The notes below the pieces were generated by a model. It was not told the origin of the DNA, ran no database searches, and saw only the letters and a list, made by a program, of their open reading frames with translations. This document shows, in pieces, positions 61,082 through 62,343 of a stretch of DNA of 64,000 nt. The DNA comes from Escherichia coli (GTDB lineage Bacteria; Pseudomonadota; Gammaproteobacteria; Enterobacterales; Enterobacteriaceae): NCBI RefSeq assembly GCF_011045215.1, contig NZ_CP049201.1; one strand, given 5' to 3'. The translations under genes were made by a program, and so were the position numbers. Within the stretch, counting starts at the first letter, position 1; the number at the start of each line of letters is the position of its first letter.

Positions 61082-61315
61082 TCAGAACCCCTTAACTTTC
61101 ATGATATGCAACAAACCAATACCCAAGCCTAAGATCCCCCCCCCATACACACTCATTTTTAACAGTCTAGAAAACTGAAAAACTTCAAATGATATTGGGG
61201 CATTCAAATAAAAATACATAAATATCTTCAGAAGAAGATAAAAAATCGAACCGACTATAAACAAACCAAATATGCATACAGTCATTAATAAGACAACAAT
61301 AAGAAGGTTCTTCAT
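61082..61315 (-). CDS. small membrane protein, candidate CdiI-type immunity protein
   Basis: ORF track 77 aa, hydrophobic (two predicted TM segments); ATG overlaps the upstream cdiA-CT stop by 4 nt. Confidence 0.55.
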
Positions 61316-62343
61316 TTCCCAGCCTCCATTGCATCTTTCTTTTTCTGGATAATGGAGCTTCCAAACTCAGATGATAAACTACCACCCGCATTACCCACAG
61401 CACCAGGGATCTTACTCGGTACCATTTCTTTAGATAGACCTAACTGCCCTTTAACTTCAGTATATTTTAGTAGAGTCGGATCGAATTTAGGATTCCAGCC
61501 ACCGGTTATCCATTTACCGATTGTATTTGCAGCAGGCTTGACCACATAATTGCCAACCCCATATCCAAACCCGGCCCCCGCTCCATTTGTAATCGCCCCA
61601 GTAAGAGGATCATCTCCGTTTATGGCGTTGGTTAATGCTCCACCTGCCGCATTCCAGGCTATTGTCCCTTTCCAGCCCTGCCCCATGGTGATTACATTGA
61701 CCCATCCTGCAATGATTGCATTTTCAGGATCAACTGAACTATCTACCATGTAACCAATTCCTGCATTTGCACCTGTGCCAAGAGCCCACATGGCCTGAGC
61801 ACCGCCAGGTAAGAGAGCTACACTACCAGTGGCCAACGCTCCGGCATACGCTTTATTGACTGCTTCTCCTCGCTTACAGGCTTCACCGCCTGGGGCATCG
61901 TTACAGGAAAGTACATCTGCGCCATGCGTCTGAGCAGCTTTGCTCTGCTCGGACTCTGTGCCACCAACCAAGTTATTCTCAGCAATGTTCTTCCCAACAC
62001 CAGCCCCTGCAGCCGCGCCAGCCACATCGCCACTGGCAATGCCGCCAGCCATACCCGCTGACAGCGTTGCCAGCGTGCTTATCGTCTGCTTCTGCTCTTC
62101 ACTGAGGTCTGACTGTTTCACGCCCGGATACAGCATTCCGATCGCTCTGGCTGCCAGCTCTCCCGTTGCTGCGCCTGCTGCACCAGCAGCAACATTATTA
62201 CTCTGCATTGCCGCTACTGCACCGCCCAGAATGGCGTGAGCAATGGCCTTTACTGCCGGGTCTTTTTCTGTTGATTTCAGCAGGTATGCCAGTTCCGGAG
62301 CCGAAGCTCCCGCCAGTACTGCACCAACGTCACCACCTGCCAG
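61312..62343 (-). pseudogene. orphan cdiA-CT fragment (C-terminal part of a contact-dependent inhibition toxin, no N-terminus)
   Basis: ORF track 61312..62208; the frame stays open upstream to a stop near 62344 with no ATG and encodes conserved CdiA pretoxin sequence (...[74 protein letters not shown]...GKNIAENN) followed by a Gly-rich CT domain. Confidence 0.75.

Follow-up and report, generated by a model that had tools for sequence, protein, structure and literature searches.

In a 64,000-nt stretch of Escherichia coli DNA (contig NZ_CP049201.1 of assembly GCF_011045215.1; hereafter the window), the minus strand at 61082-62343 carries what we read as the detached, probably silent toxin tip of a contact-dependent growth inhibition (CDI) system, followed by a gene for a small membrane immunity protein. 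The tip, a C-terminal toxin region (CT) of CdiA, would be of the group 6 CDI ionophore type and of recombinant origin; for this explanation as a whole we estimate a probability of about 0.85.

The toxin frame (87% identical at the DNA level to the 3' end of full-length cdiA) runs from 62343 to 61312 on the minus strand, with 343 codons and a TGA at 61312-61314 (translation of 62400 to 61312), and its C-terminus reads ...DAMEAGK. It is closed upstream by an in-frame TAG at 62344-62346 (minus strand), where a first-pass annotation made from the sequence had placed a stop; this codon is the truncation point of the cdiA stub, and similarity to full-length cdiA fades at about 62316-62343. The only Pfam match on the frame is PT-VENN (PF04829; residues 78-125, E=1.6e-12), which identifies 61972-62343 as a pretoxin stub, common to many E. 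coli and ending in an AENN motif at 61972-61983. Downstream of AENN the CT comprises 219 aa, of which 17.8% are Gly and 14.6% Ala, the Gly-rich C-terminal domain of the first-pass annotation. The stub is without a TPS domain, FHA repeats, a signal sequence or a credible translation start, and its pre-VENN sequence is homologous to full-length CdiA. As had been claimed, no cdiA body is present in the window (no open reading frame (ORF) is longer than 1031 aa, and the right end of the window falls inside arcA). The claim that the frame has no start codon needs amending: it contains a single ATG at 62208-62206 (minus strand; Met46 of the frame), although this is the counterpart of the internal Met in "AAMQ(G/S)NN" of full-length CdiA, and no Shine-Dalgarno sequence was visible ahead of it when the sequence was read by eye. 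The exact toxin product is deposited in GenBank with 298 aa (from this ATG) or 343 aa (from a CTG start at 62343), under the label "VENN motif pre-toxin domain-containing protein [E. coli]".

The segment 61051-62316 is 87% identical at the DNA level to the last 1.27 kb of full-length cdiA genes together with the next ORF, e.g., in E. coli M9, M15 and RM8082, and M9 agrees with M15 in both its CT and its 77-aa ORF. Within this segment, 62075-62298 is 96-98% identical to the pretoxin region of full-length M9/M15 cdiA. On sequence comparison the match to the 3' end of cdiA is far beyond chance; together with the PT-VENN match and the truncation by a stop codon it bears out the earlier view of the frame as an orphan cdiA-CT, and the proposed alignment to full-length CdiA did find similarity to pretoxin regions. 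M15 is the type member of the group 6 CDI ionophores (S1 Table in Halvorsen et al. 2024, PLoS Genet, PMC11630599), and WP_073528039, from strain M9 with the same CT as M15, is marked as group 6 in the S1 Appendix of that paper. Judged by these similarities, the CT and the immunity gene of the window belong to group 6.

The primers of the same study (PMC11630599) were checked against these sequences: CH4058 encodes MKRLLI, the start of the 77-aa ORF cloned as cdiI-M15, CH4108 and CH4235 encode VENNLLG and LLGGSEW, CH4109 ends at ...EAGK and the stop codon, and CH3954 agrees exactly, over its 3' 27 nt, with window 61082-61108. Because the primers match them, the M9/M15-type ORFs compared here are the ones that were tested in that paper. 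In its S4 Table, CH3953/CH3954, labelled "TMC005-mid", carry M15-type sequence (VENNLLGGSEW; 3' end of the 77-aa cdiI) and CH4127/CH4128, labelled "M15-mid", carry TMC005-type sequence (VENNSLAHVL); the labels of the two pairs look swapped.

CT-M15 depolarises target cells, requires the peptide transporter DtpA or DtpB and is blocked by CdiI-M15; depolarisation, the need for DtpA/DtpB and a block by the cognate CdiI only were shown for both CT-M15 and CT-O91:H8 (PMC11630599). By homology to CT-M15, the CT of the window may be expected to share depolarisation, DtpA/DtpB dependence and block by CdiI. The membrane-targeting toxin suggested at first pass has an experimentally characterised relative in CT-M15. 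Neither NCBIfam nor PADLOC holds a family for the CT or for CdiI, and Pfam offers PT-VENN alone, in agreement with the authors' remark that CDI ionophores lack a database designation (PMC11630599). A PDB sequence search with the CT returned no homologue.

CT residues are numbered here from the first residue of the AENN/VENN motif (A or V). The boundary between the entry and ionophore domains was placed at the junction of CT-M15, Leu58, as given by primer CH6273 "M15-L58-EC93-P88" (PMC11630599), where the entry domain is described as modular. The entry domain of the window (residues 5-58; 61810-61971, minus strand) aligns to that of CT-M15 without gaps at 70.4% identity, with Cys27 and Cys36 conserved, and may engage DtpA/DtpB. 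The ionophore domain (residues 59-223; 61315-61809, minus strand) falls into two unequal parts, of which residues 59-92 are 50% and residues 93-223 are 96.9% identical to CT-M15. GxxxGxxxG occurs at CT residues 134 and 136, and this glycine zipper (61552-61584, minus strand) corresponds to the only element common to the whole ionophore family (PMC11630599). An AlphaFold2 (AF2) model of the CT, based on an alignment of 56 sequences, was all-helical and of low confidence (mean pLDDT 42.9, pTM 0.34), with helices predicted at residues 10-29 and 34-51 of the entry part and further on at 60-81, 86-98, 104-121, 126-146 and elsewhere. A fold search with this model was omitted because a low-confidence model gives meaningless matches.

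The 77-aa ORF lies at 61315 to 61082 on the minus strand, and its ATG (61315-61313) overlaps the TGA of the toxin frame (61314-61312) as ATGA, the 4-nt overlap noted at first pass. A GGAGG at 61323-61327 (minus strand), within the toxin coding sequence, provides a Shine-Dalgarno sequence 7 nt ahead of this ATG (read from the sequence). The protein begins MKNLLIV and is identical to CdiI-M15 at 75 of the 77 positions. It is very hydrophobic (grand average of hydropathy 1.43), with a sustained hydrophobic stretch over about residues 1-38 (19-residue window) and a second hydrophobic segment, read by eye from the sequence, at about residues 54-72. Group 6 CdiI proteins are small (72-100 aa) and very hydrophobic and have two helices (PMC11630599), a type that the window protein fits by its size and hydrophobicity. 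Identical copies of the protein are encoded on 39 contigs and close variants are common in both E. coli and Salmonella; in GenBank the ORF is deposited as "hypothetical protein". The assignment of this ORF as the immunity gene (cdiI) of the orphan toxin, put forward before any database search, is thus supported by its near identity to the cdiI-M15 product tested in PMC11630599.

A three-way nucleotide comparison of the window with M15-type sequences and with a second kind of orphan, here called L010-type after the locus in which we describe it (NZ_CP027219.1), divides the orphan into three pieces. The first piece, 62075-62298, has its best match in the M15-type pretoxin (96-98% DNA identity), and is also the stub common to all strains with an arcA-adjacent locus of this kind. 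The second, 61687-62073, matches the L010-type orphan best (96-100%), and the third, 61082-61666, the M15-type ionophore domain with its cdiI (98-100%). The junction between the arcA-adjacent stub and the L010-type segment lies at 62042-62073 (minus strand), by DNA comparison. At the other junction the change from L010-type to M15-type at the informative sites is abrupt and falls between 61687 and 61666 (minus strand), a conserved block between predicted helices 2 and 3. By this alignment the orphan is a mosaic of three pieces, and one crossover falls within the ionophore domain. At the protein level the AENN motif, the entry domain and ionophore residues 59-92 are identical (100%) to those of the L010-type, whereas the distal ionophore half of the latter is only about 54% identical to the window (72 of 133 aligned positions).

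The L010-type module is present at >=95% identity in at least 43 complete E. coli genomes, with the AENN motif, a natural variant of the VENN named at first pass. The module has its own 72-aa immunity protein (beginning MINVLFA), which is 31% identical to the CdiI of the window, and in both genomes inspected the o11 DNase orphan follows directly downstream of it. The O103:H2-type strains have the module as an in-frame fusion with IS66 tnpC. In NZ_CP027219.1 (L010 6610-8604) a 1995-nt coding sequence annotated "tnpC: IS66 family transposase", likewise in >=18 other complete genomes, joins in one frame IS66 tnpC, a pretoxin fragment with VENN and an entire group-6-like ionophore CT, and is followed by the 72-aa putative cdiI.

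A complete L010-type orphan also sits on the same arcA-adjacent stub in GCA_051217915.1 (locus L014), and its protein is identical to that of the window up to the crossover. The simplest history of these sequences would therefore start from an L014-like locus in which everything distal to 61687 was replaced by M15-type sequence, i.e., roughly ionophore helices 3-5, cdiI and the gene downstream of it. This gene (60259-60816, minus strand), directly downstream of cdiI, encodes an Ail/Lom (OmpX-like) outer-membrane protein and seems to travel with the module, as it is also found beside cdiI or its remnant in unrelated islands: the UMNF18-type pheV islands are 97.4% identical to window 59900-61139, which includes the last 58 nt of the window cdiI, and strain 08-00022 has an orphan of the window type followed by a hypothetical gene and Ail/Lom. 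The M15-type distal segment is rare (22 of 5,426 complete genomes at >=80% coverage), and the full three-piece combination of the window was absent from the complete genomes searched.

The stub itself is a fixed site with exchangeable contents. The region 62042-64000 (stub, intergenic region and arcA from 63049) shares 98-99.6% identity with numerous complete E. coli genomes, and its part from 62042 up to arcA matches, at 98-99% identity, the same stub as found with other CTs in many E. coli. Elsewhere this stub carries CdiA-o11/CdiI-o11, an Endonuclease_NS_2 toxin or an L010-type ionophore, which with the window makes four cassettes; a common entry domain with the o11 or NS-endonuclease toxins on the same stub was looked for and rejected, there being no similarity. 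The palindrome GCCTTA-GATA-TAAGGC (perfect 6-bp stem, 62383-62398), 40 nt upstream of the orphan frame, lies within the segment conserved in all arcA-adjacent stubs and has a terminator-like score on both strands.

The surroundings beyond the window were seen in a sister contig that is 99.945% identical to window 51310-64000 (the last 12.7 kb). An intact cdi locus, for which a search had been proposed at first pass, is present there: 6.8 kb upstream of the orphan, and separate from it, lies an intact cdiA of 3024 aa with TPS and ESPR domains, and the order is cdiA, a CdiI_ImmP immunity gene, the arc operon on the opposite strand and the orphan. The layout cdiB-cdiA-cdiI-arc-orphan recurs in other genomes (L012-L015), 514 blocks of the genome collection are indexed for the resident CdiI, and in strain 10035210-2 a truncated cdiB alone remains. 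In related loci the arc operon beyond the right end of the window reads arcA-arcC-argF-yfcC-argR plus a pyrBI-leader-like ORF. The resident cdiA of the sister contig gave no blastn match with the orphan, and at the protein level its aligned C-terminal tail reaches only 34% identity; with these two values, a reloading of the resident cdiA from the orphan by homologous recombination looks unlikely.

A repeat of about 110 nt marks the distal edge of cdi regions. In the window it lies at 59900-60011, after Ail/Lom; further copies are at L006 3367-3478 after the main cdiI (90%), at L003 6359-6469 after cdiI-o11 (78%) and at L008 6653-6750, and two direct copies in the sister contig flank the block of arc operon, orphan and Ail/Lom. 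In UMNF18 it is annotated as a 59-aa hypothetical gene; it has no Rfam match.

How the module would work is best described from its native setting. A full-length CdiA would deliver the CT into the periplasm of a neighbouring E. coli cell, where the N-terminal entry domain of about 54 residues would engage DtpA or DtpB in the inner membrane; the C-terminal helical domain with its glycine zipper would then insert into the cytoplasmic membrane and dissipate the membrane potential, and CdiI would bind the ionophore domain within the membrane and block it. The toxin stub of the window is most likely not made, because it has neither signal sequence nor TPS/FHA body, secretion partner or credible start. 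Even if translated from Met46 it should be inactive, because it would carry a 75-residue N-terminal extension, and no cytosolic toxicity is seen when CT-M15 begins with additional residues, be they only those of VENN or an unprocessed Met (PMC11630599). The immunity gene may fare differently: if transcribed, it would be translated from its own Shine-Dalgarno sequence and ATG and would protect against neighbours with M15-type ionophores. This expectation follows an analogy, in that orphan CTs are without initiation signals and the orphan cdiI of strain EC93, with its own Shine-Dalgarno sequence and start codon, is expressed and protective (Poole et al. 2011, PMC3150448); the orphan CT protein was undetectable in EC93, and co-transcription of the orphan with cdiBAI was shown (PMC3150448).

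Several observations weigh against the explanation given at the outset. The transcript is the weak point of a working cdiI: in a promoter and terminator scan, promoter-like matches upstream were not enriched (13 versus 10.2 +/- 3.0 in shuffled sequence), and a common transcript with cdiBAI is unlikely, as the oppositely oriented arc operon intervenes in the sister contig. (Rfam gave just a sub-threshold chance match on 59600-63100.) The AF2 model of the CT is too low in confidence to bear out the five-helix bundle predicted for ionophore domains of group 6. The entry domain is just 70% identical to CT-M15, and entry-domain variants of group 6 shift receptor preference (PMC11630599). Finally, residues 59-92 derive from a lineage with its own CdiI of 31% identity, and CdiI is predicted to contact ionophore helices 1, 4 and 5 (PMC11630599). 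Because these residues are heterologous and helix 1 is a predicted CdiI contact, toxin and CdiI of the window may be an imperfectly cognate pair. A bolder version, in which the chimeric ionophore (first two predicted helices L010-type, the rest M15-type) with its M15-type CdiI would have a new or broadened immunity specificity, we regard as unlikely. If it were true, neutralisation of the allele by its own CdiI might be incomplete, or the immunity proteins of both parents might fail against it, and the locus would be a natural snapshot of new toxin/immunity specificities arising by within-domain recombination at a silent orphan site free of selection against self-intoxication.

The same points on transcription also feed the alternative that toxin stub and cdiI are both unexpressed, as neutral debris of island recombination with no present function. 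No promoter is supported, the opposing operon cuts the module off from the resident cdiBAI, the lack of DNA similarity means that recombination cannot reload the resident cdiA, insertion-sequence (IS) scars lie nearby, and the UMNF18-type islands have kept only the last 58 nt of the gene. Against a mere relic speak both frames, intact over 343 and 77 codons, a cdiI with well-spaced GGAGG and ATG, and an immunity protein found unchanged on 39 contigs and often in close variants in E. coli and Salmonella, and the expression of an orphan cdiI has its precedent in EC93 (PMC3150448); we consider this alternative doubtful, if far from negligible.

Two other readings concern the toxin. The fact that annotation pipelines call a 298- or 343-aa protein, and that the ATGA overlap would couple translation of cdiI to that of the toxin, might suggest a free-standing pair of the toxin/antitoxin kind, whose 298-aa product from the ATG at 62208 acts in the producer or leaves it by another way. 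This ATG, however, is an internal CdiA Met with no visible Shine-Dalgarno sequence, the product has no signal peptide or secretion domain, cytosolic CT-M15 that carries VENN or an unprocessed Met shows no toxicity (PMC11630599) and the orphan CT protein of EC93 was undetectable (PMC3150448), so we give such a pair hardly any credence. Entry by a different class of receptor rather than DtpA/DtpB, either SecY-dependent as in group 2 (like o10-EC869) or AcrB-, YciB- or PuuP/PlaP-dependent, deserves a hearing for its part: the first 92 residues of the CT derive from an orphan located, in several strains, directly upstream of o11, the place of o10 in EC869, and receptor preference differs among the group 6 entry variants (PMC11630599). 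Yet the gap-free alignment of the entry domain with residues 5-58 of CT-M15 at 70% identity, including both Cys, and an L010-type immunity gene that is not cdiI-o10 make another entry class very improbable. An identity with o10-EC869 itself (SecY-dependent) was tried and rejected: CdiI-o10 begins MKLINPLKINK, and the primer sequence is absent from all 15 loci examined. We therefore retain the reading of a detached group 6 ionophore tip with its membrane immunity gene.

On its other side the module borders a second block of genes, from which it is separated by the IS scars at 59654-59904; of these, 59654-59750 matches a frameshifted transposase in 08-00022 and 59818-59904 corresponds to the two ends of an IS3-family element of RM8082, and the scars probably account for the thousands of multi-copy matches of the region in the genome search. 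The plus strand at 50310-58935 holds a type I restriction-modification operon (hsdM 50310-52748, hsdS 52742-54088, hsdR 55840-58935) in which a DarT/DarG pair is nested (darT 54101-54757, darG 54742-55821; PADLOC E-values 2e-74 and 1.5e-127, respectively). A 238-aa ORF (58935-59651, plus strand), whose first base is also the final base of the hsdR stop, matches Pfam YgjP-like and, weakly, SprT-like (in the sister contig); it has no NCBIfam or PADLOC match.

Orphan CDI modules have been known since 2011, and publication of this toxin/immunity family, receptor included, followed in 2024, so that the observation, though right, is an ordinary one. Its value lies mainly in annotation, since proteins labelled "VENN motif pre-toxin" and "hypothetical protein" can now be given names, as a fragment of a group 6 CDI ionophore and the corresponding immunity protein. 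Beyond this, the locus illustrates clearly, in natural strains, how cassettes are exchanged on one fixed stub, and also a crossover inside an ionophore domain, with the help of which one could find out what helices determine immunity specificity; as this crossover may bear on how immunity specificity evolves, it is of mild interest.

Among known systems, CT-M15/CdiI-M15 is the closest to the module of the window. Both have a two-domain CT of 223 residues counted from the motif, a glycine zipper, a CdiI of 77 aa and the ATGA overlap; CT-M15, however, is the tip of a 3238-aa CdiA, whereas the window CT stands on an orphan stub and, by its sequence, differs in an entry-domain allele of 70% identity, in AENN where CT-M15 has VENN, and in a heterologous first third of the ionophore domain. 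The founding CDI ionophore, CT-EC93 (group 1, AcrB-dependent), also has a glycine zipper in its helix 4 and a CdiI that is small and hydrophobic, as in the window type, but differs from it in entry domain and receptor; the published PSI-BLAST, in which a CT-EC93 query recovered M9/M15 with E=2e-05 and 32% identity, places both in one superfamily with remote sequence similarity (PMC11630599). In gene structure the window module resembles the orphans described by Poole et al. (2011, PMC3150448), e.g., cdiA-CT-o11/cdiI-o11 of EC869, which likewise consist of a truncated VENN fragment without initiation signals and a self-initiating immunity gene. The o11 toxin is a DNase with a soluble immunity protein, in contrast to the ionophore-type CT and hydrophobic CdiI of the window, and the classical orphans come immediately after cdiBAI and share its transcript, whereas the window-type orphan, as the sister contig shows, is separated from cdiBAI by the arc operon.

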